Shown here: piece by piece, positions 9,298-37,490 of the stretch | Numbering within the stretch: position 1 is the stretch's first letter | How the letters are laid out: each line of letters starts with the position of its first letter | IMG/VR virus record: IMGVR_UViG_3300043256_000348 | Location: 1-64,000 of that record | DNA from: a virus | Direction: 5' to 3' (one strand) | DNA length: 64,000 nucleotides | Program-made: the position numbers and the translations under genes | The notes under the pieces: generated by a model | Databases searched by the model: none | Told to the model about the DNA's origin: nothing | What the model saw: the letters and a program-made list of their open reading frames with translations, nothing else

Positions 9298-10242
9298 TTA
9301 CCGTCCTCCCATGCTTTGGCCTTCCCTGGCAATCTTTCGGGACTCAAGATAGTTGTTGCCCTTGGCTACTTCCATCGTGGTGATCAGCCCCGTCTGCGGG
9401 TTCAACGTCACCCAGAGATTTTTCAGGTCCTGCCAGTTGGTCAAGCTGTCCTCGGCCGTGCCGGCCGGGACCCGCTCCTGCTTGCCGACCAGCAGAAAGA
9501 TCGGTTCGGCCCCTGAGTGGACGTGACCATCATGGTAGACGCGCTCCAACGATCCATTGGGCGAAAACATGATGTAGACGCGCGAATTCGTTTGCGCGCC
9601 GATGGAATGCGAATCAGTCCCCGAGAATTCCAGATCGATGATTGTGCGGGCGGGCAATTGGAGGGAACTAACAGCCGACTTGCTGGGCTGCCGGGTGATC
9701 TGATAGGCCACCGGCGCGGATTGCGCTGGGGCCTTAGGCCAAGGCAACCTCTGCCCCTGAGACAGATCGATTTGAAGCGTCAATGAATCGGCGGTGCGCT
9801 GTACGATTTCATACATCGGCCCCTGATAGTTGAACTGTACAAGATCCCCTTGGCTGACTAGGCTGATATTGATTGGTGAGGTGAGTTGTGCGAGCACGGT
9901 TGCCATACCGCCAGATAGGGAATCCACCCGCAATTGCGCAGCCGCATCGAGCGTCTCGCCAGCGTACGGGGGCGGCACTTCGACCTGTTGGAGCACCGCG
10001 GCGCACTGCGGCAGGCCGTCCATCCGCCGGATCATCACGCCGCAGGGCCGCCCGGTCTCCATTGCCCGGTTCCGGGCCGAGGAGAAATAAATGTTGACTT
10101 GCCGGGCCGCCTCGCGAGTTCGCCGCTCTTCCATCGAGAAGTCTATCATCCGGGCACCGACCGCCAACAGGACCACGATGATAGAAATCGCTACCAGCAA
10201 CTCGACCAGCGTGAAACCACTCTGCTTTGTTCTGGCCCTCAT
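9298..10242 (-). CDS. Type IV prepilin-like (minor pilin/pseudopilin) protein with N-terminal cleavage/methylation site
   Basis: Class III signal MRARTKQSG-FTLVELLVAISIIVVLL with E5; AAGGGAG RBS; ARNRAMETGRPCGV as in GspH/FimT-like proteins. Confidence 0.9.
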   Translation of the reverse strand: MRARTKQSGFTLVELLVAISIIVVLLAVGARMIDFSMEERRTREAARQVNIYFSSARNRAMETGRPCGVMIRRMDGLPQCAAVLQQVEVPPPYAGETLDAAAQLRVDSLSGGMATVLAQLTSPINISLVSQGDLVQFNYQGPMYEIVQRTADSLTLQIDLSQGQRLPWPKAPAQSAPVAYQITRQPSKSAVSSLQLPARTIIDLEFSGTDSHSIGAQTNSRVYIMFSPNGSLERVYHDGHVHSGAEPIFLLVGKQERVPAGTAEDSLTNWQDLKNLWVTLNPQTGLITTMEVAKGNNYLESRKIAREGQSMGGR

Positions 10243-10276
10243 CGTTTTGCTCCCTTGAGTTCAGCCCCGCTTAGCC

Positions 10277-10284
10277 ATTATACC
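10277..10284 (-). promoter_or_regulatory. GGTATAAT -10 element upstream of the pilin gene
   Basis: ATTATACC on + strand, about 35 nt upstream of pilin ATG; same octamer recurs across the window. Confidence 0.6.
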
Positions 10285-10331
10285 CAATTGGCACCGCAGA
10301 TACCCCCGAAATCCGCCAGAGAGTCAGTTCG

Positions 10332-11015
10332 ATGATCCAAGTCGGCATCACCGCATCGCCCCGGCCCGTGGACTACCTGCCGGCCACCGTGGCGAGCCTC
10401 CGGGCCGCCGGCTGGCCCGATCCCGTAGTGTTCGCCGAGCCCGGCACGCCCGCACCCCCGGACTGCCGCTTTGTCGCCGCCCAGCGCCGCCTGGAGCCGT
10501 GGTTTGCCTTCCAAACGGCTCTCGGCAGCCTCTTGGCAACCGGCCCGCAGGGAGCGAGCCTGGCCATCTTTCAGGATGATGTGCTCGCGGCCCGGAACCT
10601 GCGGGCGTGGCTGGACGCAGAGCCGTGGCCCCCGGACGCGGGGGTGGTGTCGCTCTACCTGTCGGAGGCGCAGGCGGAGGGGCGGCCGCTCGGCTGGTCT
10701 GCCCTCGACCCGGACGCCAACCCCTACGGGGCCTGCGGGGTCGTGATGAGGCCGGAGGTCGCCCGGAGGCTCTTGGACGACCCTCCCCACCGGGGCAACG
10801 GCCGGATGACGGACACCTGGCTCGGCGTGTTCTGCGAGCAGGCCGGGCTACGGTTTTGGCAACACAAGCCGAGCCTGATCCGGCACGTCGGCCGGGAATC
10901 TTCGCTGTCGCGGAAGGGGCACAGGCCGATCGTCCGGCCGTGGATTCCCGCTAGGCACGAAGGGGATTTCGTCGAGGACGCCGCGCTGTTAGCCCACGGG
11001 CGGATCACGGTATAA
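10332..11015 (+). CDS. Glycosyltransferase, GT-A fold (GT2/GT25-like)
   Basis: LAIFQDDV DxD-type motif; YGACGVVM; PSLIRHVG. Confidence 0.7.
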   Translation: MIQVGITASPRPVDYLPATVASLRAAGWPDPVVFAEPGTPAPPDCRFVAAQRRLEPWFAFQTALGSLLATGPQGASLAIFQDDVLAARNLRAWLDAEPWPPDAGVVSLYLSEAQAEGRPLGWSALDPDANPYGACGVVMRPEVARRLLDDPPHRGNGRMTDTWLGVFCEQAGLRFWQHKPSLIRHVGRESSLSRKGHRPIVRPWIPARHEGDFVEDAALLAHGRITV

Positions 11016-11016
11016 T
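11009..11016 (+). promoter_or_regulatory. GGTATAAT -10 element, probable leaderless transcript
   Basis: 6 nt upstream of ATG 11023. Confidence 0.5.
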
Positions 11017-11022
11017 GGGGGC

Positions 11023-11706
11023 ATGGACGGAATCTACAAAGCCTCCGCTGTGGTGCTGAGCTACCGGCGGCCCCGGAACGTCGAGCGGATCGTCGGGGAG
11101 CTTGTCGCCCTGGACTTCGTTGACGAGGTGGTGGTCTGGCACAACGGGCCGCACGAGCAGCCGAAGCTGCCGATGGGCGGGAAGTGCACGATGCTCGCGT
11201 GGGGCGAGAACAAGTTCGTCTACGCCCGGTTCCTGGCGCTGCGGTTCTGCCAGCATAACATAATACTAACGGTCGACGATGACTGTCTTGTTAAAAATTG
11301 GAGGGCGATCCTGGACGAGCACCTGTCGCACCCCGAGGTCGTCACGGCAGGCCTGACGCCGGGACACTACAACGCAGACAAGAACAACCGCTGGCGAACT
11401 TGCCACGAGATTCTACTTGGTTGGGGAGCCTGCTTCGACAAGCGGCTGGTCGAGCCGACGCTGGCGAAGTACATCGATGTCCACGGCCACGACGAGATAC
11501 TCCACCGCAAAGCGGACCGGCTGTTCACGATGCTGCTGAACCGGCACCACAACGTGCTCAAGGCGGACGCGGAAGAGTTGCCCTTGGCGCGCGACGATGA
11601 CGTGGCCCTGTACCGGCGAGAGGACCACTACCCTTTGACGATCGAGGCCCGGCGGCGGGCGTGGAAGATACTCGGCATGAGCCCCAACGATGGAGCCACC
11701 GGATGA
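11023..11706 (+). CDS. Glycosyltransferase, GT-A fold (GT2/GT64-like)
   Basis: VVLSYRR, EVVVWHN, ARF...ILTVDDDCLV motifs. Confidence 0.8.
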   Translation: MDGIYKASAVVLSYRRPRNVERIVGELVALDFVDEVVVWHNGPHEQPKLPMGGKCTMLAWGENKFVYARFLALRFCQHNIILTVDDDCLVKNWRAILDEHLSHPEVVTAGLTPGHYNADKNNRWRTCHEILLGWGACFDKRLVEPTLAKYIDVHGHDEILHRKADRLFTMLLNRHHNVLKADAEELPLARDDDVALYRREDHYPLTIEARRRAWKILGMSPNDGATG

Positions 11707-12632: not shown

Positions 12633-12730
12633 GGGTATTTCTAAAATACTGAGCACTTAACTGTTTACGAGGTATAGGGTTACGGGGCGAAAATCCCGCT
12701 ATTAGATTGGGCTCATCCCCAGGTATAATT
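12632..12730 (+). promoter_or_regulatory. 99-bp promoter/operator element, copy A
   Basis: Ungapped 78/99 match to reverse complement of 45573-45671; ends in GGTATAAT. Confidence 0.8.
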
Positions 12731-12737
12731 GAGCATC

Positions 12738-14111
12738 ATGGTGAGTGACTATCAGGCATTCCTTGACAACAAGAGCCAGGGCGGGGAGGACTCCGGATTC
12801 GCCCCCATCTTCCTGCCAGACTTCCTCGTCGACTTCCAGAAGATGCTTACGGAGTGGACTGTACGTAAGGGGCGAGCGGGGCTCTATGCCGATACTGGGC
12901 TTGGCAAGACCCCAATGCAGTTGGTTTGGGCCGAAAACATCCGCCGAAAAACAGGCGGGTCAGTGCTGATCTTGACGCCGCTCGCAGTGTCCCACCAGAC
13001 GGAACGCGAGGGCGAGAAGTTCGGCATCGAATGCAAGCGGTCGCCCGATGGCAAGCACCGGGGCGGGATCGTTATAACCAACTACCAGAGGTTGCACTAC
13101 TTTGACCCCTCTGATTTTGCAGGCTGCGTGTGTGACGAGAGTTCGATCCTAAAGAACTTCGATGGAAAGACCAAGGCGACGGTCACGGAATTCATGCGGC
13201 GGATTCCCTACCGGTTGCTGTGTACAGCCACGGCTGCGCCGAACGACTACTTCGAGCTAGGCACGTCATCGGAGGCCCTAGGCTACCTCGGCTTCCAGGA
13301 CATGCTTACTCGCTTTTTCAAGGAACAGACGAAGAAGGATTATCTCGGCTGGGGTCGGAAGAGCTATAGGTTTCGCGGCCATGCGGAGCAGCCGTTCTGG
13401 AGGTGGGTATGCTCGTGGGCAAGGGCGTGCCGGAAGCCTTCCGACTTCGGATTCGACGACGGCAAGTTCAAGCTGCCTCCGCTAAACGAGGTGGAGCACG
13501 TCATTGAGTGCAGTCGTCCCCGCCCCGGCATGCTGTTCGCCGTTCCCGCGAAGACGCTCGAAGAGCAGAGGGAAGAGCGGCGGCACACCTTGCCCGAACG
13601 GTGTGAGGCGGCTGCGAAGTTGGCTGCCGGCAACGGCTCCGCTTCTGTCGTCTGGTGCCACCTGAACAAAGAGGCCGATCTGATCGAGCGGCTGATACCG
13701 GGGGCGTTGCAGGTCAGCGGCTCCATGTCGGACGACCAAAAAGAGGAAAGGCTGCTGGCGTTTCAGTCGGGCGAGCTACAGAAGCTTATCATCAAGCCGA
13801 AGATCGGAGCGTGGGGGCTGAACTGGCAGCACTGCCACAACATCGTCACGTTCCCATCTCACAGCTTCGAGGCCCACTACCAGTCCGTCCGTCGCTGCTG
13901 GCGTTTCGGACAGGAGCATCCGGTCACGGTCTCAATCATCACTACGGAGGGCGAGCAGGCCGTCCTACGGAACCTGCAACGCAAGGCAAGGCAAGCCGAC
14001 CGGATGTTCGATGCACTGGTGGCCCACATGAACGAGGCAATGCACGTTGACAGGACAACGGAGTTCCCCAAGCAAGAGGAGGTGCCATCGTGGCTGTCAT
14101 CGACCAAGTGA
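12738..14111 (+). CDS. SNF2-like / SF2 helicase (phage type)
   Basis: DTGLGKT, VCDESSILK, TATAAPND, GLNWQHC, QSVRRCWRFGQ motifs. Confidence 0.9.
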   Translation: MVSDYQAFLDNKSQGGEDSGFAPIFLPDFLVDFQKMLTEWTVRKGRAGLYADTGLGKTPMQLVWAENIRRKTGGSVLILTPLAVSHQTEREGEKFGIECKRSPDGKHRGGIVITNYQRLHYFDPSDFAGCVCDESSILKNFDGKTKATVTEFMRRIPYRLLCTATAAPNDYFELGTSSEALGYLGFQDMLTRFFKEQTKKDYLGWGRKSYRFRGHAEQPFWRWVCSWARACRKPSDFGFDDGKFKLPPLNEVEHVIECSRPRPGMLFAVPAKTLEEQREERRHTLPERCEAAAKLAAGNGSASVVWCHLNKEADLIERLIPGALQVSGSMSDDQKEERLLAFQSGELQKLIIKPKIGAWGLNWQHCHNIVTFPSHSFEAHYQSVRRCWRFGQEHPVTVSIITTEGEQAVLRNLQRKARQADRMFDALVAHMNEAMHVDRTTEFPKQEEVPSWLSSTK

Positions 14112-15049
14112 TCGGCGAGCGTTACGCGATTTACAATTCAGATTGTTTGGAGGTTCTACCCACCCTGCCTGACGAGTCGGTCCACCTGTCGATCTACTCT
14201 CCGCCTTTCGCGGCCGACGGGGGCGGCTGTCTTTACCACTACTCCTCGTCCGAACGCGACTTGTCCAACTGCCGGACCCACGCGGAGTTCTTTGAACACT
14301 ACGAGTTCGTGGTGCGCGAGGTCCACCGGCTGACCATGCCCGGCCGGATCAGTGCCGTGCACTGCATGGATATTCCACGGAAGGGAGAGCGGGGGCTGGC
14401 CGATTTCCCCGGTGAGATCATCCGCTTGCATGAGAAGCTCGGCTGGTGGTTCTGGGCTCGTCATTTCGCGTGGAAGGAACCGCTCGGCGTTCGCAACCGG
14501 ACGATGGCAAGGGGGCTGGCCCACCGGCAGGTCGTCGAGGATTCGTCGCTGTGCGATGTAGCGTCGGCTGACCACCTGTTGCTGTTCCGGAAGAAAGGCG
14601 ACAACCCGGTGCCGATAGAGCACCCGACCGGCTTGCAAGAGTACGCCGGCGAGCGAGAGGTGCCGCACGAGCTTTTATCGTACCGGAACTGGGAGGGCAA
14701 GCAACGCGACAACCGCTATTCCCACTGGATCTGGCGGCAGTATGCCTCGGCATTCTGGGACGACATACGGATCGAGAGGACGCTGCCGTACAAAGAGAGC
14801 AAGCAGGGTGACGACGAAAGGCATGTGCACCCTTTGCAACTTGACGTGATCGACCGGCTGTTGGTATTACGGTCGAATCCCGGCGAGACGGTGCTCACCC
14901 CGTTCATGGGCATCGGGTCCGAGGTCTACGGGGCGTTAGTGAACAACCGGAGGGGCGTGGGGATCGAACTCAAGGCAGCCTACTACAATCAGGCGAAGAA
15001 AAACGTGGAGGCAGCCCTTGTCAACGAGCGGGAAGGATTGCTGTTCTGA
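14090..15049 (+). CDS. DNA methyltransferase (N4-cytosine/N6-adenine)
   Basis: YSPPF catalytic motif; TPFMGIGSE SAM-binding motif; GVGIELK. Confidence 0.9.
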   Translation: MAVIDQVIGERYAIYNSDCLEVLPTLPDESVHLSIYSPPFAADGGGCLYHYSSSERDLSNCRTHAEFFEHYEFVVREVHRLTMPGRISAVHCMDIPRKGERGLADFPGEIIRLHEKLGWWFWARHFAWKEPLGVRNRTMARGLAHRQVVEDSSLCDVASADHLLLFRKKGDNPVPIEHPTGLQEYAGEREVPHELLSYRNWEGKQRDNRYSHWIWRQYASAFWDDIRIERTLPYKESKQGDDERHVHPLQLDVIDRLLVLRSNPGETVLTPFMGIGSEVYGALVNNRRGVGIELKAAYYNQAKKNVEAALVNEREGLLF

Positions 15050-15206
15050 CGAGTGGAGTGAGGGCCCGGCTATAAACTACGTTCCGATCTGCAAGCACCC
15101 GCGAGACTTCATGTTCACGATGGGACCGTTGGGGTACGAGCTGGTTGATGTGGTGACGGAATCGCCCATACTAATTCGGACGGACAAGCCGAAACCGGAG
15201 GGACGA

Positions 15207-15932
15207 GTGACCGACCGACGGAACGACCTACCGCTACGGCCCGTGCCCCGAGAGGACTGGCAGCAGGACTTCGACCGCCTGATGCGGGACGAATACCTTC
15301 GCCGGAAGTACGAGCGGACGGCGAGGGTGGCCGAGCACCTGGCCTACATCCGCTACCACTGCCCGGAGCTGACGAAGAGCGGCGAGGGGCTGGTTGTGGA
15401 CGTGGGCCCCGGCCCGGGCGAGTTTCTGGAATGGTGCCGCAAGTTCGGTTGGAAGACGCTCGGCGTGGAGGCGATGAGCGGGGCGGGCGGCATGGGGGAT
15501 GGCTACCTGCAACTGTCGAGGCTGATGCTCGAGCGGCAGGGGATCGACGTGCGGTACTGCGGCTGGAGGCAGTTCGTCACGCACCTGCAAGCCGACTCGT
15601 GCGAGCTGGAGGTGGCGTTCTTCGGGTTCCGCGGGTCATGGGCCCAGTGCTACGCGGAGTTCGTCGGCGGACCGCCTCACCATACGCACCACGACGTAAA
15701 GCGTCAGTTCTGGCAGTTCGACTACCACCTTCGCTCGGCCTGGCTGGACGCTTTCGAGGCGATGGAAAAGCGGCTCGTGTGTGGCGGTTCCGTACTGATC
15801 GCAGCGAACAGGCTCGGCGAGCAGTCCGGGCAGGACCAATACTGCCGGGAGATACGACGGGTTGCGGAGCGTGCTGGGCTGACGTTGGTTAAGCGCGAGG
15901 ATAACTGGGTCCACCAGTGGAGGAAAGCATGA
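15207..15932 (+). CDS. Class I SAM-dependent methyltransferase-like protein
   Basis: RBS GGAGGG then GTG 15207; VVDVGPGPGEFL motif I. Confidence 0.65.
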   Translation: MTDRRNDLPLRPVPREDWQQDFDRLMRDEYLRRKYERTARVAEHLAYIRYHCPELTKSGEGLVVDVGPGPGEFLEWCRKFGWKTLGVEAMSGAGGMGDGYLQLSRLMLERQGIDVRYCGWRQFVTHLQADSCELEVAFFGFRGSWAQCYAEFVGGPPHHTHHDVKRQFWQFDYHLRSAWLDAFEAMEKRLVCGGSVLIAANRLGEQSGQDQYCREIRRVAERAGLTLVKREDNWVHQWRKA

Positions 15933-16468
15933 CAGCTATCGTCGCGATCAAAACCAGCAGCCGCGTGGTGATGGGCTGCGACTCGGCGGCCATTGGCGGT
16001 TGGCACCTGCAATTACGAGCGGATCCCAAGGTTTTCCGTGTCGGCCAGTTCCTACTCGGTTGCTGCGGGTCGATTCGGATGGCGCAACTGCTTCAATTCG
16101 GCGAAGGCCGGTTGTCGCTGAGGTCGCTCCGGCCGAGGGGCGACAGCCTGACATTCATGGTCCGGCACTTCGTCCCGAAGATGCGGGCGATCCTCAAAAA
16201 GGGCGGGTACGCCAAGGTACTGAATAACGTGGAGGAGACCGGGGAGTTTCTGATTGCTTGGCGGAATCACTTATTTACTATCCACGCCGACATGCAGGTG
16301 GCGCAGCTTCACGATCACTATGCGGCTTGCGGCTGTGCCTGGGAGATCGCGCTGGGATCGTTGTTCAGCACCCACGGCCGAGCGGAGGAGCGCATCGCGC
16401 TGGCCCTCGAAGCAGCGGAGCATTGCTCAGCCGGAGTGCGGCGGCCCTTTGTGATCGAGAGCACATGA
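15929..16468 (+). CDS. Ntn-hydrolase, HslV/proteasome beta-like peptidase
   Basis: M-T-A-I-V-A N-terminal Thr nucleophile, MGCDS, PKVF, IALGSL, ALEAA. Confidence 0.7.
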   Translation: MTAIVAIKTSSRVVMGCDSAAIGGWHLQLRADPKVFRVGQFLLGCCGSIRMAQLLQFGEGRLSLRSLRPRGDSLTFMVRHFVPKMRAILKKGGYAKVLNNVEETGEFLIAWRNHLFTIHADMQVAQLHDHYAACGCAWEIALGSLFSTHGRAEERIALALEAAEHCSAGVRRPFVIEST

Positions 16469-17061
16469 CGTTCAAGTGGAGGAACGTGATCCCTGGACAG
16501 ACGCGGAGCGGGCTGTTCATCCACATCCCCCGGACCGGCGGCCGCGCCCTGTTGCGGGTGCTCAACTGCCCCAGCTCGCACTACCCGGCTGCCGAGCACA
16601 GACGGCGGATACCGGAAGACGTGTGGGACTCGCTCTGGAAGTTCGCCGTCGTGCGGAACCCCTGGGACCAGTACGTCTCGATGTGGCTCTGCTCACACGG
16701 GCGCGGGGACCCCGGCGATCTGCACGGCGAGGTCCCCGTGTTCCGCCGCTGGATCGCCGAGGGCGGGCTGAGCTTGAAAATCTGGGGCGGCAGTACGCGG
16801 ATAAGCGCGGTTGACCAAATGGCCTTCATCACCGACAATGACGGCAAGCTGCTGGTGGATCGCGTATATGTCTTCCCACGGTTACAAGACGCTGCCGATG
16901 ACGCCCACCGGATACTGAAGATACGTGCGGCGGAGGTGCCCCACGTGGGCCGCTCGCCGCGGCTGCACTACCGGGAATACTACGACGACGAAAGCAGGCG
17001 GGCCGTAGCCGAGTGGCGGAAGGCCGAGATTAAGCACTTCGGATTCGAGTTTGGGAAATGA
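16465..17061 (+). CDS. Sulfotransferase (family 2-like)
   Basis: FIHIPRTGG 5'-PSB and VVRNPWDQYVS 3'-PB motifs; YREYYD...FGFEF C-terminus. Confidence 0.85.
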   Translation: MTFKWRNVIPGQTRSGLFIHIPRTGGRALLRVLNCPSSHYPAAEHRRRIPEDVWDSLWKFAVVRNPWDQYVSMWLCSHGRGDPGDLHGEVPVFRRWIAEGGLSLKIWGGSTRISAVDQMAFITDNDGKLLVDRVYVFPRLQDAADDAHRILKIRAAEVPHVGRSPRLHYREYYDDESRRAVAEWRKAEIKHFGFEFGK

Positions 17062-18056
17062 GCAAGACAGCGATGATAACCGGGGCGGGCGGGCAAGACG
17101 CCGCGTGGCTGGCCAAGCTGCTGCTGTCGAAGGGCTACCGCGTCTGCGGCACGGTCCGCCGGCATTCTGTGGCCGAGACCCAGGACTGGCGGCTGAAGCA
17201 GTTGGGTATCGCTGACCAGGTGGAGACGTGCTACGCTGACCTGACCGACTACGGCTCGATCGTGGACGCCGTGCAGCGGTTCGAGCCGGACGAGATTTAC
17301 CACCTCGCGTCGATGAGCCATGTTCGCGTCTCATTCGACAAGCCGGTCTACACGGAGCAGGTCAACGCGGGAGGCACACTGCACGTCCTGGAGGCATACC
17401 GGAAGTTCGCGCCGAAGGCCAAATTCTACTTCGCGGCGAGCAGCGAGATGTTCGGCCGGTCGGTCGACCCGGACGGATACCAGAGGCTCACGACGCCGTT
17501 CGATCCGGTGAGTCCGTACGGCGCGGCGAAGGTTTTTGGCTACCACCTCACCCGCCACTACCGCCGGGCCTACGGGCTGTTCGCCGTCAACGGAATCTTG
17601 TTCAACCACACGGGCCCGCTGAGAGGCAGTTCCTTCGTGGAGGCGAAGATCGTCAAGACAGCCGTGCAGATCAAGCGGGGCTTGAAAGATACACTCGTGC
17701 TCGGCAATGTGGATAGTAAGAGGGATTGGGGCGACAGCCGCGATTACGTGAGGGCGATGTGGGCGATGCTCCGTGCACAGGAACCGACCGATTGGCTGAT
17801 TGCCAGCGGGACAACACGGTCAGTCCAGTGTGTCTGTGAAATGGTATTTCGCATGCTTGGCCTGGATTGTTGCGAGTATGTGGAACGAGACAAACGCTAC
17901 GTGCGGCCGGAGGAACTGCCCGTCCTGCGTGGCGATGCCATCAAGGCAAAGACGTTCCTCGGTTGGGAGCCGATGTACAGCTTCCAGCAAACATTGCGGG
18001 AAATGGTCGATCACTGGGAAGGAGTCTTCGATGGAAAGGATATGGTCCAAGGCTGA
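17058..18056 (+). CDS. gmd: GDP-mannose 4,6-dehydratase
   Basis: ITGAGGQDA, SHVRVSF, ASSEMFG, SPYGAAK, NGILFNH, KRDWG motifs. Confidence 0.93.
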   Translation: MSKTAMITGAGGQDAAWLAKLLLSKGYRVCGTVRRHSVAETQDWRLKQLGIADQVETCYADLTDYGSIVDAVQRFEPDEIYHLASMSHVRVSFDKPVYTEQVNAGGTLHVLEAYRKFAPKAKFYFAASSEMFGRSVDPDGYQRLTTPFDPVSPYGAAKVFGYHLTRHYRRAYGLFAVNGILFNHTGPLRGSSFVEAKIVKTAVQIKRGLKDTLVLGNVDSKRDWGDSRDYVRAMWAMLRAQEPTDWLIASGTTRSVQCVCEMVFRMLGLDCCEYVERDKRYVRPEELPVLRGDAIKAKTFLGWEPMYSFQQTLREMVDHWEGVFDGKDMVQG

Positions 18057-18483
18057 GCCGGGCAAGCTGCTGCACTTGATCCACCGCAAAGAGGACTTCG
18101 GAAAGGAAGAGCGGGCAAGGCTTTCACCGTCCGCAGAAACGCTAATGTGCGCCGCAATCAGTATGGATTGCGGCAAAGCGTTCCAGCCGCACCGCCACCT
18201 CCCGCAAGATCGCCAAACAGATCACACGCAAGAAATATGGATTGTGATTCGCGGAATGGTCACTGTGGCATACTACGATACGGACGATTCGTATCTATGC
18301 TCAAGGGACTTGCACGACGGGGACTGCACGATCACGCTGGCCGGCGGCCATGGATACCAAGCTGGCGAAGAAACACTCGTGTATGAAATTAAAACCGGCC
18401 CGTACCACGGAAGGGATCGGGATAAAGTTTACGTTGACGGCGGGGAGTGGGCTAATGATACCGACCACCAACTTGGCGGATGA
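18031..18483 (+). CDS. Cupin-fold sugar-nucleotide-associated protein (WbuC-like)
   Basis: PHRH...TQEIW...GGHGY...YEIKTGPY. Confidence 0.7.
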   Translation: MERIWSKAEPGKLLHLIHRKEDFGKEERARLSPSAETLMCAAISMDCGKAFQPHRHLPQDRQTDHTQEIWIVIRGMVTVAYYDTDDSYLCSRDLHDGDCTITLAGGHGYQAGEETLVYEIKTGPYHGRDRDKVYVDGGEWANDTDHQLGG

Positions 18484-18991
18484 TGGCTGCTTTATGATGC
18501 AGGCCGTGGACTTAGCTCGCCGCAACCGTGATCCCAATCGCAGGAAAGCAATCGCCGCGTTGATCGTCAAAGACGGCATGGTGATTGCCAGCGGCGTGCG
18601 GACGACGCGGAAAGATCAAGGCAGCGGACTAATAGATACGTGCCACGCCGAGGACGCGGCTCTACAAGTCGCGGGGCATGGTAGTCGCGGCAGTACCTTG
18701 TACACAACGCTTGCCCCTTGTGCGGAGCGGGCGAACCTGAAGTGTGATGTCCCGAAGCGACCCTGCTGTCAACTGGTGGCTGATGCAGGAGTGGCCCGCG
18801 TCGTAATAGGGGCGTTCGACGAGGACTTCGGCAAGGGCGGCGTCGAGTACCTCATCGAACGCGGCGTATGCGTGGAGCAATATCCTCTTCCTGAGTCAGT
18901 GGTGCAGATGCTGCTGGGCAAAGAGCGTGGGCGCCCCGTGGAGGGGCCTGGTAACCAATCTGCTGACAAGAGGTTCCTGGACGAAAGATAA
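18455..18991 (+). CDS. Zn-dependent deaminase (cytidine/dCMP/RibD-N superfamily)
   Basis: HAEDAAL and YTTLAPC...PCC motifs. Confidence 0.8.
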   Translation: MIPTTNLADDGCFMMQAVDLARRNRDPNRRKAIAALIVKDGMVIASGVRTTRKDQGSGLIDTCHAEDAALQVAGHGSRGSTLYTTLAPCAERANLKCDVPKRPCCQLVADAGVARVVIGAFDEDFGKGGVEYLIERGVCVEQYPLPESVVQMLLGKERGRPVEGPGNQSADKRFLDER

Positions 18992-19407: not shown

Positions 19408-19408
19408 C

Positions 19409-20443: not shown

Positions 20444-20444
20444 C

Positions 20445-26261: not shown

Positions 26262-26273
26262 GAGGCGTGTTTA

Positions 26274-28210: not shown

Positions 28211-29201
28211 AATCCTGTTAGTGCACCCAGATATTTTCTGGTGCTTCAAGTGGATGGCCGAGGAGATCGCACGCTACGCTGGCCCCGACAACTTCGTGTT
28301 CGCGATGGGACAGTCGGACTTCGAGGCGGTCGCCAAGCACGCGGGTCCGAAGTCGCTGGGCCACCTGGACGCGGCGTTCCACTTCTCGCTCAGCTCGGCG
28401 TCTATCCTGCGGCGGGTGAACGCGGACCGCTACGGCTCGCTGCTAGCGAACGAGGGCTGGTGCTATGACGAGTTCAACGCGGGGAACTGGCGGACCAACG
28501 CGGTGGCCCCGGAACGCAACGCGGTCTTCGGCAAGCAGGTATCGGCCGGGCTCGACGTGCTGATCTGCCTGACCGAACGGATAAGGGAGACAGCCTCGCA
28601 GTGGAACGAGGGCGCGGTTTGCATTCCCCAGGGGCTCGACACCAGGACGTGGTATCCGCCCGTGAAGCAGCATCCGAAGCCGCAGCTCGACGGCATTCGC
28701 GTCGGCTGGTGCGGCGACAAGGGCGGCAAGCGGTCATTCAAGGGGTACGACGAACTGTTAGTACCACTCAGGGAGCGACTACGTCACGGCGTAACGTGGG
28801 ACGTGAACGACCGCGACCACACCAGCGCGAAGTCGCGGGCTGAGATGCGGCAGTGGTACGGCGGCCTGGACCTTTTCGTCTGCACGGCGATCAACGAGGG
28901 CGGGCCGTACCCGCCGTTTGAGGCGGCGGCATGCGGGACGGCGGTGGTGAGCACCAACGTAGGGATAGTGACAGCGTGGAAGCAGGCCCACGACCTGGAG
29001 CTGATCGCCAAGCCGTGCTGGAACGACAAGATGGCGAAGATCACACTAGACGAGCTGGAGGCCAGAATCGTGTGGCTGCGGGACGACCCGGTGCGGCGGG
29101 AGAAGGTGAGCAACTGCCTACGAAACTCGGTGATCGAGAAGTACAACTGGGAGCGTCTTGCAGCCAAGTGGATCGGAGCGATGGTAGGGACGGCTAAATG
29201 A
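28203..29201 (+). CDS. Glycosyltransferase (GT4-like)
   Basis: IRVGWCG, EGGPYPPFEAAACGTAVVSTNVG. Confidence 0.88.
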   Translation: MPRILLVHPDIFWCFKWMAEEIARYAGPDNFVFAMGQSDFEAVAKHAGPKSLGHLDAAFHFSLSSASILRRVNADRYGSLLANEGWCYDEFNAGNWRTNAVAPERNAVFGKQVSAGLDVLICLTERIRETASQWNEGAVCIPQGLDTRTWYPPVKQHPKPQLDGIRVGWCGDKGGKRSFKGYDELLVPLRERLRHGVTWDVNDRDHTSAKSRAEMRQWYGGLDLFVCTAINEGGPYPPFEAAACGTAVVSTNVGIVTAWKQAHDLELIAKPCWNDKMAKITLDELEARIVWLRDDPVRREKVSNCLRNSVIEKYNWERLAAKWIGAMVGTAK

Positions 29202-29725: not shown

Positions 29726-29728
29726 CCA

Positions 29729-30352: not shown

Positions 30353-30705
30353 TTGCGATCCCAACGCAATTCGACGTGAAGAAAGACGACTGGTACGGGG
30401 AAAAACTCTTGCTACCGGATGGATCGCTCGTACTTTTACGTTTCCGCGGCTGGACTGTCGCAACTTCCTTTCCCGGCTGCCATTCATGCCTCGCATTGCA
30501 GTTGACCGGCCGGACCAACGCCTATCGCTACTGCGACGCAGGTGCCGAACACCTCCTATGTGTCAACGTGGCCCCCGGCGTCTGGCCCGCCCTGAAAATT
30601 AAATTCATAGAACGCAGCATGGGCTGGAATGCGTTCTGGACCTACGATGGTTCGCCGTTTCGCGCTGAAGTATACGAGCGGATTGACTTCGGCCGCCTGC
30701 TATGA
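30349..30705 (+). CDS. Hypothetical protein
   Basis: ATGA-coupled on both sides. Confidence 0.5.
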   Translation: MIAIPTQFDVKKDDWYGEKLLLPDGSLVLLRFRGWTVATSFPGCHSCLALQLTGRTNAYRYCDAGAEHLLCVNVAPGVWPALKIKFIERSMGWNAFWTYDGSPFRAEVYERIDFGRLL

Positions 30706-31949
30706 TATTTTTGTTTCATCCAAAGCCCTATCTGATCCAGCCCAACGCACAGGTGGGCCTCGGGCTGCTCTGCTTGGCGACCTACGCGAGGGAGCTTGGG
30801 GCCGAGGTCCGGGTGGTCAACGCGCAGGCGTGGACGATTGACCGGGCAGTGGAAGCGGTGCCGTCGGACGTGACTGTGTGCATGGGCGGCTGCCTGGTCG
30901 ACCGGCCAATCATCGACGATCTCTCAGCGAAGCTGCGGGCGAAGGGATGCTACGTCGTGGCCGGCGGGCCGGTGGCAGACGGCGAGGCCCTGGGGCCGAG
31001 GTGCGCGAGCCTGATCGTGCGGGGCGCAGGGGAGCCGTTCGTCCACCGGTACGTGCAGGAGGGCTGGCGGCCGAAGGGGCGGGTCAACTCACCCTACATC
31101 GTCGACTACGGGGCGTACCCGATCCCCGATCGTCGGCTGCTCGGCGGGCAGTTCGGCGGGAACATCTATCACCCGCGGTCGGGCAGGCAGACGCCGGTAT
31201 CGACCACGCTCCTGACGGCGAGGGGCTGCCGGTACTCGTGCGCCTTCTGCCGGTCGGGCTCCCGCCGCGAGTTCTACGAGTACCCCCGGTCGCGGATTAG
31301 GGCCGAGCTGGAACAGATCGTGGAGCTTGGTATCCGCGACGTGCGGCTGGCGGACGACAACCTGGCATCCGGCCAGTCGAGATTCGCACGCCTGTGTGAG
31401 TTGCTGGGACAGCATGGCATCCACTGGCGGGCGAGCCTACGTACCTATCCTAACGATGTGTCTCTGTACCGGACGATGGCCGAGAGCGGCTGCATAGAGG
31501 TGAGCCTCGGCGTCGAGAGCGCTGACCCCGCCGTGCTGAGGACGCTCCGGAAGGGCAGCCGCGTGGAATCGAACGAGCGGGCCGTGGCGAATGCTGTGGC
31601 CAGCGGAATCCCGCACGTCCGGGCCCTGATGATGATGAGCACGCCAGGGGAGACGGCCGAGACCCTCGACCTGAACAAGCGGTGGGCGGAAGCCCATCCC
31701 GAGGTGACGATCTGCCTAAGCGCCTTCGTGCCGTTCCCAGGCACGGCGATATTCCAATCGCCGGAGCGGTTCGGCTGCCGACTGGAAATGGACCTGGACA
31801 ACCTGAACTTCTTCGCATTCCAGGGCGACGGGGCTTTGCCAGGGGCTCATGTGGGTATAATAAATGGTATGAGCCGTGATGAGCTGACGCGGCAGTTGCG
31901 GGCTTTCCGGGGATTTCTCGAAGAGCGGGGACAGATCAATGAAGGATAA
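30702..31949 (+). CDS. B12-binding radical SAM protein
   Basis: LGLLCLATY and VAGGP (B12 domain); RGCRYSCAFC; LGVESAD; PFPGT. Confidence 0.92.
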   Translation: MIFLFHPKPYLIQPNAQVGLGLLCLATYARELGAEVRVVNAQAWTIDRAVEAVPSDVTVCMGGCLVDRPIIDDLSAKLRAKGCYVVAGGPVADGEALGPRCASLIVRGAGEPFVHRYVQEGWRPKGRVNSPYIVDYGAYPIPDRRLLGGQFGGNIYHPRSGRQTPVSTTLLTARGCRYSCAFCRSGSRREFYEYPRSRIRAELEQIVELGIRDVRLADDNLASGQSRFARLCELLGQHGIHWRASLRTYPNDVSLYRTMAESGCIEVSLGVESADPAVLRTLRKGSRVESNERAVANAVASGIPHVRALMMMSTPGETAETLDLNKRWAEAHPEVTICLSAFVPFPGTAIFQSPERFGCRLEMDLDNLNFFAFQGDGALPGAHVGIINGMSRDELTRQLRAFRGFLEERGQINEG

Positions 31950-32193: not shown

Positions 32194-32227
32194 ATCCAGG
32201 CGTTCCTTGAAGAGAGAGGACAGATCA

Positions 32228-32959: not shown

Positions 32960-32983
32960 TGCACGAGACATAAGGAATCCAAG

Positions 32984-33356: not shown

Positions 33357-33826
33357 GATTCGTCTTCGGTTGGTTGTCATGCCTGCTCGGTCTGCACCGG
33401 AAGGTCTACTGGTCGCCGGAAGACTGTGAACGTGAGCGAGCCATGGGCGGCATGTGTACGCCCTGGTCATGTTCACGTTGCGGCCACCAATCACAGATAT
33501 TCCGTTATCCTCTGTGCCCGCCTCGGCCTGGACGGGAAGCCATGAGTGATTCAGTCGGTGACCGGATCGTTGAGGGGCTGCAAGACTTCACCGAAACTCT
33601 GAAGTGCTACAGAGGAGAATCGCTGGAGAAATTGTATTCCATTATCGCCATCCACCCATTGGCCGTCGGCATTCATACATATCCGCATGCCGACAAGAAC
33701 AACCAACGTATCCACGCAGGTTGCGAAGAGCTTGAGCGGCAGGGCAGGATCTACCGCAAGACTGACGAGCCGAATCACTGCTTCTGGCTGCCGACAAAAC
33801 AAGAGGACACTACCGATGGCGACTGA
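33353..33826 (+). CDS. Hypothetical protein, possibly two fused cassettes (second start 33542)
   Basis: GGAAGCCATGAG occurs at both 33346 and 33535, with in-frame ATGs. Confidence 0.45.
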   Translation: MRFVFGWLSCLLGLHRKVYWSPEDCERERAMGGMCTPWSCSRCGHQSQIFRYPLCPPRPGREAMSDSVGDRIVEGLQDFTETLKCYRGESLEKLYSIIAIHPLAVGIHTYPHADKNNQRIHAGCEELERQGRIYRKTDEPNHCFWLPTKQEDTTDGD

Positions 33827-34778
33827 CATCCGACTCGCCTTCGTGTTCAACCCCGACAACCCGTACCTCTGCGGCAAGCGATACCAGGTGAACTTCCGCA
33901 AGTGGTTCCTGGAGGCGCTGCCACGTGCCGAGGGTCTGCGGGTGGACTTCATCACCAACGCCCAGCGGCTGGACTTGCAGCCCGTGTCCAAGCTGTACGA
34001 CGCCTGGCTCTTCTTCGACGCGATGGAGTGGGGCCTGCCGCCTGTGCTCACCGGGGTCGATAAGATCAAGGCCGTGAAGGTCTGCCACATCGGGGACGCG
34101 CACGGCGTCAACAAGCTATCGAAGGCGTTCGGCGGCACGAAGCTGGACTGCTGCCAGCGGTTCGGCTTCGACTACTACTTCTTCCAGCACTCGCCGAGCT
34201 ACTTTTACCGGCACTACCCGGCCGACTTCCGCTACTGGTGGATTCCGATGGGGGTGGACGCGGAGCTGTACCGCGAGGTCAAGCCGTGGAGCGAGCGGCG
34301 GTTCGATAAGGTGCTGCTGACCGGCTGCCTTGGGTCGGAGTATTATCCACTGCGAACGCGGCTCGCCGATCACCCAATGGTCCGCTATGAGAAGCCCGGA
34401 TCGTACAGCGGGTGGGACAGCTACGCACCGGGCAAGTGGGACGAGGATCGGTACAAGCTGCTGCTGGAAGAGTGGGGGGCATCGATCGCGTCCGGCTATT
34501 CCGTGGTGAATAAGTATTTCGAGATACCGGCTGCGGGGTGTTTGACGTTCGCGCACATCGACGGGGACAACGGATGCGGCGTGATAGAATTCGATCCGGA
34601 CGAAGTGGTGCTGGTCAACAACGCGACGGCCGACGCGAAGATTGCTGAGTTCTTGGAGAGGCCGGCTGATCCGAAGTGGAACGTCCGGGCCGCCCTCGGC
34701 CGAAACTACGTGATGGAAAACTTTTGCCACGACAAGACCGTGCAGATGCTTGTCGAGAAACTGAGGGAGGCGTTATGA
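33816..34778 (+). CDS. Glycosyltransferase (CgeB/Glyco_trans_1_2-like)
   Basis: VLLTG...YYPLR; VNKYFEIPAAGCL. Confidence 0.8.
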   Translation: MATDIRLAFVFNPDNPYLCGKRYQVNFRKWFLEALPRAEGLRVDFITNAQRLDLQPVSKLYDAWLFFDAMEWGLPPVLTGVDKIKAVKVCHIGDAHGVNKLSKAFGGTKLDCCQRFGFDYYFFQHSPSYFYRHYPADFRYWWIPMGVDAELYREVKPWSERRFDKVLLTGCLGSEYYPLRTRLADHPMVRYEKPGSYSGWDSYAPGKWDEDRYKLLLEEWGASIASGYSVVNKYFEIPAAGCLTFAHIDGDNGCGVIEFDPDEVVLVNNATADAKIAEFLERPADPKWNVRAALGRNYVMENFCHDKTVQMLVEKLREAL

Positions 34779-35791
34779 GAATCCTAGTCTTGTGCCCACA
34801 ACCGCTTTGGGGCAGCCGATTATCCGCCAGTCGCCGGCACGACGTGAAGGCCCTGGAGCGACGGCCCGACGTGACGCTGAAGATGTCCGGCTACGGCTGG
34901 CCGGACTGGCAACAAAACGACACTGCCCTGGCGAACGTGCGGCGGATCATGCGCGACGCGGACTGCGTGTACACCTATAAAATCGGAGGCAACCCCCGCA
35001 AGGGAGTGCCGGCGGCGAACGATCCCGGCAGTATAGCGGACGGCTACCTCGTTGTCCAGAAATGGCAGGAAATGTGGTGGACCGGCACGGGGCCGAACGA
35101 TCCGGAGCCGGCGTGGAAGCAGGCTGTCGCCGAGCGTGTCGGCTTGGCGATTCTATCCCACGCGAACGACGTGCCCCGGATGATGGAGGCTGCCAAGCGG
35201 GGCGTGCAGGTCGCGGTGATCCCCCACGCCGCCGAGCCCCAGGTGTTCGCCCAAGCAGCACAGGAATGGCCCGGCCGCAAGATCGACGTGCTGTTGACGG
35301 GGAGCATCGGCGAGAACCACTACCCCCTGCGGGGCCGCTGGCAGAAGCTCATGCAGGACGGCAGGCTGCCGGGGGCGTGCTACCAGCATCCGCACCCGGG
35401 CTACTGGTTCAACGGCGAGCAGCAGGCCGAGGCCCGGGTCCGCGACTACGCACAGAACCTCGGCAAGTCGAAGATCGTGCTGGGCTGCACGAGCCGCCAC
35501 AGGTATGAACTGGCCCGCTTCCCGGAGGCCGCGATGGCGGGGGCCATCCACGTCTCGGACATGCCGGAGATTCCGCTGAAGGGATACGAGGATTTCATCG
35601 TGCCGGTCGAGGCTGACTGGTCGGACGAGCGACTGATCCAGACGGTGGCCGACCTTCTGGCGGACAAGCAAAAACTGAGCGTGATGAGCGAGCGGGCGCA
35701 GGCCACTGCCCGGCAGTCGTTCACTTGGGAAAAGTGGGCTGATCGATTCGTGGACGCGGTGAAGCGAACACTAGGAGGACCCAATGGCTAA
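34775..35791 (+). CDS. Glycosyltransferase (CgeB/Glyco_trans_1_2-like)
   Basis: IDVLLTG...HYPLR; SKIVLGCTS; RFPEAAMAG. Confidence 0.8.
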   Translation: MRILVLCPQPLWGSRLSASRRHDVKALERRPDVTLKMSGYGWPDWQQNDTALANVRRIMRDADCVYTYKIGGNPRKGVPAANDPGSIADGYLVVQKWQEMWWTGTGPNDPEPAWKQAVAERVGLAILSHANDVPRMMEAAKRGVQVAVIPHAAEPQVFAQAAQEWPGRKIDVLLTGSIGENHYPLRGRWQKLMQDGRLPGACYQHPHPGYWFNGEQQAEARVRDYAQNLGKSKIVLGCTSRHRYELARFPEAAMAGAIHVSDMPEIPLKGYEDFIVPVEADWSDERLIQTVADLLADKQKLSVMSERAQATARQSFTWEKWADRFVDAVKRTLGGPNG

Positions 35792-36143
35792 CCAGCTTAA
35801 AGACTGGAAAGACGACTACGATTGGAAGAATGCGTTTTCCATGGCCGTCGATGGGATAGAGTGCCCTTATGACGTTCGTGGTCCGATCGAAAACGTCCGG
35901 CGGGTTATTGCCTGTGATGAGGGGGAAAACGACGGCGCTGAGTGGATTGCTGTTGTAGAATGGAGCGATGGCAAATTCGCCGTGATGGCCGCTGGCTGCG
36001 ACTACACGGGATGGGACTGCCAGGCCGGGGGAACTATCGAGTTCTACGATAGCGAGGAAGTCGCGTTGGTCGAACTAACGCCCGAACAAGCTGCTCGCTT
36101 AGGCGTGCCCCACGATGCCAATAAAGGAGGACCCGATGCCTGA
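35784..36143 (+). CDS. Hypothetical acidic phage protein
   Basis: RBS AGGAGG; GCDYTGWDCQAGG. Confidence 0.65.
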   Translation: MANQLKDWKDDYDWKNAFSMAVDGIECPYDVRGPIENVRRVIACDEGENDGAEWIAVVEWSDGKFAVMAAGCDYTGWDCQAGGTIEFYDSEEVALVELTPEQAARLGVPHDANKGGPDA

Positions 36144-36543
36144 CCAACTGCAAGCCGGCTCGGAGCTTGTGGCGCGCGTCGCGGTAGAGGTCATGGGCTA
36201 TGAGTGGTGCCCACCTTACACGCCTCGCATCGGCGGGCAGAATCCGCCGTATCATCCTGGCGGTGCATGGAAGCTACCAGACGGGTCATATCGAATCAGC
36301 TTTCGGCCGGACCTGTACTGGTCGGCTGCGGGGGAAGTGCTGGAGAAATTACGAGAGATGTGGACCGAGGCGACCAACGGCGCGAGTGGTTTTGATGACG
36401 ACTTTCCAAAACCCTTCGATGATGGTGCGTTCTTCAATTCGCTGCATCGGCACGCGGATCGGCGATGGCCGTGGGCGTTCTTGTACGCGACGCCCCTGGC
36501 AATCTGCCGGGCGGCCCTGGCTGCCGTGGAGGCAAAGCAATGA
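36136..36543 (+). CDS. Phage ABA sandwich domain-like protein
   Basis: AAGEVLEKL...TPLAICRAALAA signature. Confidence 0.7.
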   Translation: MPDQLQAGSELVARVAVEVMGYEWCPPYTPRIGGQNPPYHPGGAWKLPDGSYRISFRPDLYWSAAGEVLEKLREMWTEATNGASGFDDDFPKPFDDGAFFNSLHRHADRRWPWAFLYATPLAICRAALAAVEAKQ

Positions 36544-37490
36544 GAATCCTCTACCTCAGCAGCCAGCGATGGTATGAGCAGAAGATGGACCGCACTCGCG
36601 TTCTGAATGTCGAGGCCGTACGCAGGCAGCCGAGCGTCAACCTGCACATCTGGGGCAACGGCTGGCCAGATTACGTCGAGGGCGAACTACTGGAGCAAAA
36701 CATCCGCCGCAGGGGCATTGAGTATCCCGACCTTGTGTGGTGCTTCAAGGCGAACGAGCACAAAGGCGTGGCTGAGTTCCCACGGCCGAAAGCCATCGAG
36801 CTAAACGACTGCTACGACGCCAAGATTGCTGACGAGGTACGGGCTGCCGCCCCGTCGCTTGTCGTCTACCACCACGAGAACGACTGGCAATCGGAGAACA
36901 TGAGGGACGGAGCCCGACCGGGGTGTGATTTCATCCACGTTCCGCACTGCGCAGACAAGGCCGTTTTCTACCGCGAGGGCGACTGGGACCGGCCGATCGA
37001 CTGCCTCTTCGCCGGCGCGCTTCACGAGACGATCTACCCGCTCCGCTCGCGGTACGTGCAGCTCATCAAGGGCGGCGCGATTCCAGGCGAGGTCCGCCGC
37101 TTCCCAGGACACCGGACGCGAACTGCCGGTGAGGGGGAGGCCCAGCACCACAGTTTCTCGAACCACCTGCGGCGGTCGAAGGTGGCCCTCTGCTGCTCCT
37201 CGACTTACAAGTACGCCCTAAGCAAGTACGTCGAGGCCATCGCGGCTGGATGCGTGGTGGTGGGCGATATGCCAGACGACCAGTTGTTCCGGGACACGCT
37301 AGGGCGGGCACTCGTTGAGGTGAACAACAGCATGGCAGACGACCAGATCATGCGAATCGTGAAGGAAACACTGGCCGATCCGGCCGAGCTAGAACGGCGA
37401 CGGGAGTTCGGATACGCCGAGTACCTAGCCGCCTACACTACGGAGCACTGGGCTCGCCGGTTTCTGGAGGCTGCCAGTCGAGTCGTTTGA
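36540..37490 (+). CDS. Glycosyltransferase (CgeB/Glyco_trans_1_2-like)
   Basis: IDCLFAG...IYPLR; SKVALCCSS; KYVEAIAAGC. Confidence 0.8.
   Translation: MRILYLSSQRWYEQKMDRTRVLNVEAVRRQPSVNLHIWGNGWPDYVEGELLEQNIRRRGIEYPDLVWCFKANEHKGVAEFPRPKAIELNDCYDAKIADEVRAAAPSLVVYHHENDWQSENMRDGARPGCDFIHVPHCADKAVFYREGDWDRPIDCLFAGALHETIYPLRSRYVQLIKGGAIPGEVRRFPGHRTRTAGEGEAQHHSFSNHLRRSKVALCCSSTYKYALSKYVEAIAAGCVVVGDMPDDQLFRDTLGRALVEVNNSMADDQIMRIVKETLADPAELERRREFGYAEYLAAYTTEHWARRFLEAASRVV

Follow-up and report, generated by a model that had tools for sequence, protein, structure and literature searches.

The stretch of DNA analysed here (the window, 64,000 nucleotides) was the first 64 kb of IMG/VR virus record IMGVR_UViG_3300043256_000348, a phage genome of 92,947 bp with direct terminal repeats that was rated 100% complete; the hosts of the phage are planctomycete bacteria (Planctomycetota). 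Behind the tail genes lay a predicted minor pilin gene on the minus strand and, divergent from it, a long plus-strand island of sugar enzymes (the glycan island). This arrangement, already described in an earlier note made from the letters alone, was confirmed by Pfam matches and by the layout of the open reading frames (ORFs). The earlier note had taken pilin and island for a single system; they are two separable modules. The features around the pilin are as follows.

4290–6491, plus strand: tape measure protein, anchoring the tail module (PF10145 PhageMin_Tail, E 1.6e-45)
7341–9183, plus strand: distal tail-module genes (7341–8249, 8240–8758 and 8716–9183), the last structural genes before the pilin
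9208–9229, plus strand: left copy of a 22-nt imperfect direct repeat (77%), family D5, with its right copy at 10321–10342
9298–10242, minus strand: predicted prepilin of 314 aa, a host-derived minor pilin of the FimU/GspH type that contains an inserted beta-barrel
10243–10331: intergenic region separating the divergent pilin and first island genes, with the TATAAT box and AAGGGAG ribosome-binding site of the pilin on the minus strand, as read from the sequence
10332–37972, plus strand: glycan island

The tail genes spanned the start of the record and continued into the window, and the head genes were found at the far end of the record (portal at 74562–76850, then a protease-AAA fusion; major capsid gene at genome positions 80872–82587, outside the window). 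Homologs of the tape measure protein were present in the related phages G002, G003 and G007. The distal tail-module genes gave no match in a Pfam search; in G002/L071 and G003 their homologs directly preceded the first island gene. Searches of the complete genome for a tyrosine or serine integrase found none, and the phage appears to be non-temperate.

The pilin gene started 114 nt after the last tail-side ORF. A scan for consensus promoters and terminators around it detected no full sigma-70 site and no consensus site. The right copy of the direct repeat spanned the ribosome-binding site and the start of the first island gene; the repeat gave a weak hint of an insertion scar of the pilin cassette, and it was indistinguishable from 13 other short repeat families within the same 1.35 kb.

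The glycan island covered 27.6 kb (30% of the genome) and encoded ~37 proteins, every plausible gene being on the plus strand and the genes overlapping or lying a few bases apart (largest gap 293 nt). As judged by Pfam, NCBIfam and PHROG searches, it carried at least 10 glycosyltransferases (GTs), a GDP-mannose dehydratase (Gmd), a sugar aminotransferase, two sulfotransferase-like enzymes, several methyltransferases and a radical SAM enzyme. The sugar-enzyme operon of the earlier note was thus confirmed, but it was not purely a glycan island, since a helicase-like gene, an N6/N4 DNA methylase and a deaminase were interspersed. After the last island ORF (37487–37972) a minus-strand recombination module (RecT, PDDEXK exonuclease) started.

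Pilin and island in related phages

Two relatives kept the island behind the tail genes without the pilin. In the closest one (IMG/VR contigs G001/G002, L070/L071; 70–80% protein identity), the last tail-side gene lay directly before the homolog of the first island gene (10332–11015), and no pilin was found between the tail genes and this first glycosyltransferase in G002/L071. G003, a complete 90-kb relative with a capsid 46% identical, contained 13 island genes in the same position and largely the same order (GT-A, GT2-like, methyltransferase, Gmd, DegT, two GT4, Methyltransf_24, fucosyltransferase-like, three CgeB-like, radical SAM), and no prepilin motif was found anywhere in it. Tail genes and island were co-directional and contiguous in three phages. 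A PF13469 sulfotransferase was found in this phage only, among the relatives searched, and Gmd was not found in the sequenced part of the L071 island.

L003, an IMG/VR contig with a member of the pilin family, had no island-gene homolog within 17.9 kb, and no other gene was in common between this phage and any of the 58 pilin-family loci examined. Since pilin and island proved to be unlinked in relatives, the very comparison to which the earlier note had referred its proposal, a single pilin-plus-island system is unsupported.

A prepilin was also carried by G004, a complete 93-kb distant relative (capsid 33% identical). This protein of 356 aa, with an N_methyl domain, was encoded at the end of the tail operon, converging on plus-strand sugar genes (DegT, methyltransferase and GT-A homolog). 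It could be aligned with the pilin family over its full length at ~25% identity, and its closer relatives (45–53%) formed a different planctomycetal set. In a maximum-likelihood tree the two phage pilins fell into subfamilies A and B (100/100 split), each nested among non-phage sequences, and they formed one clade in 0 of 200 bootstrap trees. A different pilin subfamily at the same junction in G004 therefore indicated that the pilins had been captured (or re-captured) independently, as host-matched alleles. In five subfamily-A genomes the best subfamily-B match was the A gene itself, which suggests from sequence comparison that A and B are orthologs in different host clades; no subfamily-B member at E<=1e-20 was found in 301 Planctomycetota genomes, with just 6 candidates scored per genome. 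Scans of IMG/VR with the pilin alignments, which depended on peptide patterns and were not a census, recovered only L003 (subfamily A) and G004 itself (subfamily B). The 1146-aa ORF beside the L003 pilin was not confirmed as a tape measure by PF10145.

F10-like Pseudomonas phages encode FimU mimics (P-FimU) that become part of the pilus tip (Sztanko et al., Cell Rep 2026, PMC12952977). These genes also lie in the tail cluster, so the recurrent association of the pilin is with tail genes, and sugar genes neighbour it because both occupy the same post-tail slot.

Were pilin and island one system, the glycan might be placed on the phage pilin or the host pilus, or the virion coat might be the ligand of the pilus tip and the pilin would close that route. 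The two are adjacent in this phage, and the position of the G004 pilin, again between tail and sugar genes, could hint at a functional link and not a shared insertion hot spot, a point that weighs against independence. On the other side are the two relatives with an island and no pilin, the L003 pilin without island genes, the absence of an oligosaccharyltransferase or any other periplasm-facing enzyme, and the association of published phage minor pilins with tail genes, not glycan genes (PMC12952977). We consider a single system improbable. The reading that we favour, tentatively and at a little under even confidence, is that of two independent modules in a variable post-tail slot, of which the pilin would substitute at the host pilus tip and the island would glycosylate the virion. 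The two models of the earlier note, superinfection exclusion and a glycan coat on the virion, each fit one module, not both.

The pilin and its host family

The pilin matched N_methyl (PF07963) with E 5e-8 (32.6 bits against a cut-off of 21.2), its sole Pfam match at E<=0.01, and a PDB profile search aligned the N-terminal helix only. The N-terminus was MRARTKQSG|FTLVELLVAISIIVVLLAV (beginning FTLVELL after the cleavage site), with Glu at +5; the protein thus showed the short basic leader ending in Gly, the hydrophobic alpha-1 helix and the E5 of the prepilin class. In an AF2 model (pLDDT 87.6) a helix extended over residues 12–63. Compared by VIA-align, this model matched P. aeruginosa FimU 4ipu with Z 11.8 (130 of 137 residues, root-mean-square deviation (rmsd) 2.6 A), V. 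cholerae EpsH 4dq9 with Z 11.7 and E. coli GspH 2knq with Z 9.3, FimT 7qyi gave Z 6.5, and the next unrelated structures were at Z<8. Matches of middling rank in the list were accounted for by the inserted beta-barrel. Because the FimU, EpsH and GspH matches stood well above the rest, the modelled protein is assigned as a FimU/GspH-type minor pilin, not a major pilin.

More than 420 homologs of the pilin were found, belonging to Planctomycetota wherever named (Pirellulales, Thermoguttaceae), and many were on megabase contigs. The nearest were 68–70% identical to the phage pilin, and one of them (L004) was located in a host pilus operon. The host block, found in L007, L008, L012, L014, L030 and others, had the order PilB/GspE-like ATPase, PilT, second ATPase (PilB), PilC, pilin, pilin, phage-pilin family, pilin and a 1550–1900-aa protein, with gene names taken from N-terminal sequence signatures, not profile searches. 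By this gene order the phage pilin family appears to hold the third pilin position in a type IV pilus operon conserved among Pirellulales. The giant 1550–1900-aa protein that ends the Pirellulales/Thermoguttaceae operon (L004–L060) has an N-terminal hydrophobic helix and is possibly a tip protein. Many metagenomic ORF calls for the pilin start with a repeated "...CKLQI..." peptide, suggesting a repeated DNA element just upstream.

The phage pilin agreed with its family at 92 of 96 strongly conserved columns and for this reason looks assembly-competent, like a working subunit. No phage-specific insertion, loop or extension was seen in the pilin alignment A1, where its divergence followed the family-wide variable regions. 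Its GC and GC3 were not atypical for the phage (z -1.1 and -0.5). Against 50,697 GenBank phage records, tblastn with the pilin gave zero matches, as did megablast with 50 kb of the window.

In the favoured reading, the pilin would be a recently captured, intact copy of the host FimU/GspH-type adaptor, the third pilin gene of the Pirellulales operon. Its own promoter would probably drive its expression, the host prepilin peptidase would process it, and it would replace the host protein in the pilus tip complex. The surface recognised by tip-binding phages would thereby be altered, giving superinfection exclusion like that of Pseudomonas P-FimU, which keeps the pilus functional and blocks adsorption of tip-binding phages (PMC12952977). 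On such a model the phage lineage itself probably adsorbs to the pilus tip. Of the superinfection exclusion proposed in the earlier note, the part in which the host pilus is substituted fits the pilin (FimU fold, operon position, P-FimU precedent); the part in which the pilus is decorated found no support, the island encoding neither an oligosaccharyltransferase nor a membrane protein. Two points weigh against tip substitution: the pilin has no phage-specific loops or extension, unlike P-FimU, and the phage has no recognisable integrase. Pilin-like genes have been noted in virulent phages too (PMC12952977).

The same gene could act as a poison, its lytic overexpression jamming the minor-pilin priming complex or the prepilin peptidase and so abolishing pili or the type II secretion pseudopilus. 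FimU overexpression alone disrupts pilus assembly (PMC12952977), the dosage in an apparently non-temperate phage need not match that of the host, and no phage-specific surface loops were seen. However, the phage pilin has kept nearly all conserved family positions, which would be expected if the subunit works; alleles matched to the host clade, present in two phages, fit either mechanism. Poisoning of assembly is in our judgement rather unlikely, though it is the main alternative, and the analysis points to pilus-tip substitution for superinfection exclusion as the most likely function of the pilin.

The glycan island and its acceptor

The genes of the island, and one transferase gene outside the window, are as follows.

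10332–11015, plus strand: first island gene, a glycosyltransferase of GT-A fold carrying a DxD-like QDDV motif
11023–11706, plus strand: GT2-like transferase (Glycos_transf_2, E 3e-4, below cut-off)
11703 (probable start)–12632, plus strand: GT4 transferase (Glyco_trans_1_4, E 1.5e-8)
12729–14111, plus strand: helicase-like gene (Helicase_C, E 9e-6)
14090–15049, plus strand: N6/N4 DNA methyltransferase (N6_N4_Mtase, E 2.8e-16)
15018–15932, plus strand: SAM methyltransferase (Methyltransf_23, E 8e-5, below cut-off)
15917–16468, plus strand: ORF without assigned function
16465 (probable start)–17061, plus strand: Gal-3-O-sulfotransferase-like protein (phrog_3347, E 1e-7)
17058–18056, plus strand: GDP-mannose 4,6-dehydratase, Gmd (PF16363, E 1.5e-101)
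18350–18991, plus strand: cytidine/dCMP-type zinc deaminase, outside the conserved core (PF00383, E 6e-14)
19409–20443, plus strand: DegT/PseC-type sugar aminotransferase (PF01041, E 9e-71)
20418–21215 and 21841–22674, plus strand: two paralogous NodZ/FUT8/O-FucT-like putative GDP-sugar transferases
21212–21844, plus strand: sulfotransferase between these two paralogs (Sulfotransfer_3, E 6e-8, above cut-off)
22687–23313, plus strand: FkbM-type methyltransferase (PF05050, E 1.4e-5)
23410–24021, plus strand: Methyltransf_24 methyltransferase (PF13578, E 8e-7; 39% homolog in G003)
24023–25048, plus strand: CgeB-like candidate transferase, followed by two ORFs without assigned function
26274–27245, 27242–28210 and about 28203–29201, plus strand: three tandem GT4 transferases (Glyco_trans_1_4, Glycos_transf_1, E 1e-8 to 1e-10)
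30702–31949, plus strand: radical SAM enzyme (PF04055, E 2e-15; nearest named families B12-binding methyltransferase types)
33816–34778, about 34775–35791 and 36465–37490, plus strand: three CgeB-like (PF13524) transferases, with two small ORFs between them
37487–37972, plus strand: last plus-strand ORF of the operon, 161 aa, no assigned function
genome 83261–84271 (L002:3261–4271), outside the window: CgeB-like (PF13524) glycosyltransferase, capsid-adjacent

The first island protein gave no Pfam or PHROG match. Its AF2 model (pLDDT 67.8, pTM 0.73) gave 75 Foldseek matches at E<=1e-3; the matches listed were almost all GT-A fold glycosyltransferases, the best among them being Mimivirus R655 (E 1.5e-8) and POMGnT1, with PBCV-1 A64R also present. 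Homologs occurred in G002 (80%), G003 (39%) and G004 (35%), and the following GT2-like and GT4 genes were conserved in G002 and G003. Homologs of the helicase-like gene and the N6/N4 methylase were absent from the G003 island and from G002/L071, and 12729–15049 thus appears to be a DNA-metabolism insertion outside the conserved island core. The slot after the first GT4 gene (12729–15049 here; L065:2–832, minus strand; L071:11841–13511) holds differing DNA-methylase cassettes in close relatives, the G002/L071 methylase also matching an HNH-associated repeat (weakly, below cut-off); it looks like a swap-prone anti-restriction slot inside the sugar operon.

Within 15018–17061, homologs of 76% and 75% were found in L071. 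The best NCBIfam match of Gmd, which had a 52% homolog in G003, was TIGR01472 gmd (316 bits, below the equivalog cut-off of 415), and the aminotransferase best matched PseC and LegC, both below cut-off and with no equivalog match. Together the two enzymes predict a GDP-4-amino-4,6-dideoxyhexose (perosamine-like). The deaminase, without a homolog in G003, was nearest to the RibD deaminase domain in NCBIfam. The fucosyltransferase-like paralogs (34% identity, E 6e-40) had Atlas feature matches of 0.95–0.96 to O-FucT/NodZ/FUT8 clusters (a lead only) and a weak FUT8 Pfam match. The tandem GT4 transferases were also paralogs, and G003 homologs within 24023–29201 were at 40–43%. The radical SAM enzyme, with a 50% homolog in G003, best matched a PhpK-family radical SAM P-methyltransferase in NCBIfam (E 1.7e-26, below cut-off). 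PF13524 matches within 33816–37490 (at ~34775 and 36465) had E 2.9e-8 and 6.3e-12, and the protein from 33816–34778 had an Atlas structure match of TM 0.89 to a PF13524 cluster (a lead only). PDB sequence searches with four uncharacterized island proteins gave zero matches, and a PHROG search on ten gave a single one.

No hydrophobic 19-residue segment was present in any of the 38 island ORFs, and a domain search of the whole genome found no Bac_transf (initiating transferase), in agreement with the earlier note, which had seen no flippase, polymerase or initiating transferase. The island would then be a cytoplasmic glycan factory, probably co-transcribed with the late genes, in which Gmd and the DegT aminotransferase may produce GDP-6-deoxy-4-aminohexose, the glycan would be assembled by more than 10 soluble enzymes (GT-A, GT4, CgeB-like and fucosyltransferase-like), and the methyltransferases, the radical SAM enzyme and the two sulfotransferases would tailor it. 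The sulfated, methylated virion coat suggested in the earlier note is the best-supported reading of the island, though still an inference.

At 18 of 20 IMG/VR loci, with capsid identities as low as 30%, a CgeB-like transferase gene followed the capsid gene at a distance of ~0.7 kb. PF13524 was counted 7 times in this phage (G000), 5 times in G003 and 3 times in G004. With tblastn the capsid-adjacent transferase had zero matches in the 50,697 GenBank phage records. A small opposite-strand ORF (82547–83170) between the capsid and CgeB-like genes was 61% conserved in G001/G002. A virion protein is favoured as acceptor because the enzymes are all soluble and, in three phages, the operon runs on from the late structural genes, because island content varies among relatives, as expected of an exposed glycan, and because this transferase follows the capsid gene so regularly; the conserved capsid-adjacent enzyme would take part in the modification.

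The island might otherwise remodel a host envelope glycan (lipopolysaccharide O-chain, capsule, S-layer or holdfast polysaccharide), built on a host undecaprenyl-linked intermediate and exported by the host, which would block adsorption of other phages or stop progeny from sticking to infected cells. O-antigen loci typically have perosamine-type pathways (Gmd plus aminotransferase) and GT4 arrays, and the island differs among relatives like serotype loci do. But host initiation and export would be needed, as the searches revealed neither an initiating transferase nor a flippase, polymerase, ligase or ABC transporter; without an integrase there would be no lysogenic conversion; the operon follows late structural genes; and a transferase of the same Pfam family is fixed beside the capsid gene across the lineage. 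We regard host-envelope remodelling as possible and somewhat doubtful.

Several points weigh against a virion acceptor. Soluble transferases also build ABC-transporter-type O-antigens on host lipid carriers, peripheral enzymes needing no membrane segments; because they can use such carriers, the absence of membrane proteins is compatible with a host-envelope target. The capsid and candidate tail-tube proteins do not obviously end in Ser/Thr tails, and a motif that could mark the acceptor was not identified. The phage is known from metagenomes alone.

The earlier note had favoured a cytoplasmic acceptor, virion protein or DNA, of which the first is favoured here. If phage DNA were glycosylated on hypermodified bases against restriction, the embedded helicase, DNA methylase and deaminase might participate; in favour are the position of these DNA-metabolism genes among the sugar genes, a Mom-family gene at another site in the genome, which points to DNA modification by the phage, and the precedent of phage transferases that decorate hydroxymethyl-pyrimidines (Pyle et al. 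2024, cited in PMC12619734). DNA is however unlikely as acceptor because no thymidylate-synthase-type hydroxymethylase (ThyA family, PF00303) was found in the genome, in a search whose positive control worked in 10 genomes. No DNA polymerase turned up among the ORFs scanned, Tet_JBP (PF12851) gave no match in the genome in a search without a positive control, the three DNA-metabolism genes are missing from the syntenic G003 island and the closer relative has a different methylase, and ~12 transferases plus sulfation go far beyond known DNA glycans. We rate DNA glycosylation as very improbable. The Mom-family protein itself (window 40797–41372, minus strand; PF25680, E 2.5e-10), located in the minus-strand early/recombination block, suggests an adenine-type DNA modification unrelated to the glycan island.

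It is also conceivable, if very unlikely, that the modules are two halves of one strategy of entry and exclusion, with the virion coat as bait and the tip pilin barring later phages. The sulfated, methylated amino-deoxysugar coat would imitate the sulfated algal polysaccharides caught by planctomycete pili or fibres, the pilus tip complex would reel the phage in as "food", and the phage pilin would then alter the same tip; independent capture of host-matched pilins at the tail/sugar junction would reflect co-adaptation of coat, tail tip and pilus tip.

Other genes of the record were seen in passing. A 98-aa ORF (genome 92641–92937), directly upstream of the first tail-module genes and just before the window start, has three tandem copies of a ~22-residue motif, WSQAG[IV]G..[AV].VAAK..EPG.S. 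A 529-aa protein between the head and tail genes (genome 86880–88469) has a signal-peptide-like N-terminus, MRRIMLTVLLSLWCFVCMA, and 22% Ser+Thr, an unusual combination in the virion module. Two Clp_N repeats (PF02861, E 7e-28) were found in the protein encoded at genome 72906–73889, whose gene overlaps the end of the putative terminase gene. In the window, thioredoxin (PF00085) and then a DUF2585 protein with three transmembrane segments (49391–50843, plus strand) adjoin a membrane-protein cluster at 46409–48064 and may belong to a lysis region.

Comparison with known systems

To our knowledge, virion glycosylation has been demonstrated so far in actinobacteriophages only, and we know of almost no characterised phages of Planctomycetota; no description of sulfation of phage particles was found in the literature. 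If the favoured reading is true, two recent phage strategies reach an uncultured lineage of ~90-kb Planctomycetota phages, and virion glycosylation occurs at a much larger scale, with its own nucleotide-sugar synthesis and sulfation. The locus also offers handles on planctomycete phage adsorption, the pilus tip as a probable receptor and the capsid-linked CgeB-like transferase as half of an enzyme-substrate pair.

Mycobacteriophage virion glycans are placed on capsid and tail-tube subunits (Freeman et al. 2023, as cited in PMC11600133 and PMC12619734). As far as these citing texts describe the systems (cluster O Corndog-type and Che8-type), they share with the island tandem soluble phage glycosyltransferases, a methyltransferase (an O-methyltransferase there) and the absence of export machinery. 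They comprise 3–4 genes, whereas the island has ~37 genes in ~27 kb and adds Gmd, an aminotransferase, two sulfotransferase-like enzymes and a radical SAM enzyme; it lies behind tail genes, an extra transferase stands beside the capsid gene, and its acceptor is predicted. Linkage of a transferase to structural genes, a further mark of such systems, was seen across the relatives. We infer that the island is a much enlarged variant of phage virion glycosylation.

Giant viruses (Mimivirus fibril glycans with R655/R699; chlorovirus PBCV-1 capsid glycosylation with A64R) likewise have virus-encoded cytoplasmic pathways that place unusual amino/deoxy sugars on virion proteins; here the virus is a bacterial tailed phage, and the likeness of the first enzyme is at the fold level (TM ~0.5, 12–14% identity), implying no shared ancestry. 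O-antigen/GDP-perosamine loci have in common with the island Gmd and a DegT-family aminotransferase, then GT4 transferases and terminal methylation, but the island lies within the late operon of a phage and has no initiating transferase, Wzx/Wzy, ABC transporter or ligase.

P-FimU (JBD68, F10 and LES phages of P. aeruginosa) is the nearest counterpart of the pilin. Both are phage-encoded homologs of a host FimU-type minor pilin, and over 130 residues both superpose on FimU 4ipu, with an rmsd of 2.6 A for this pilin and 2.7 A in PMC12952977. Each is encoded within the tail gene cluster or at its edge, and alleles are diverse between related phages. Here, in contrast, the host phylum is Planctomycetota, and the 314-aa protein has a ~100–150-residue beta-barrel insertion, also present in the host family, and neither phage-specific loops nor a C-terminal extension. 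Its gene ends the tail module on the opposite strand, whereas P-FimU lies between tube and chaperone genes; P-FimU is expressed from a prophage, and here, with no recognisable integrase, the function is predicted. If that function holds, replacement of a pilus-tip subunit is ancient or repeatedly invented, with independently captured host-matched alleles. The phage pilin thus adds to the P-FimU kind a member from a phylum new to it.

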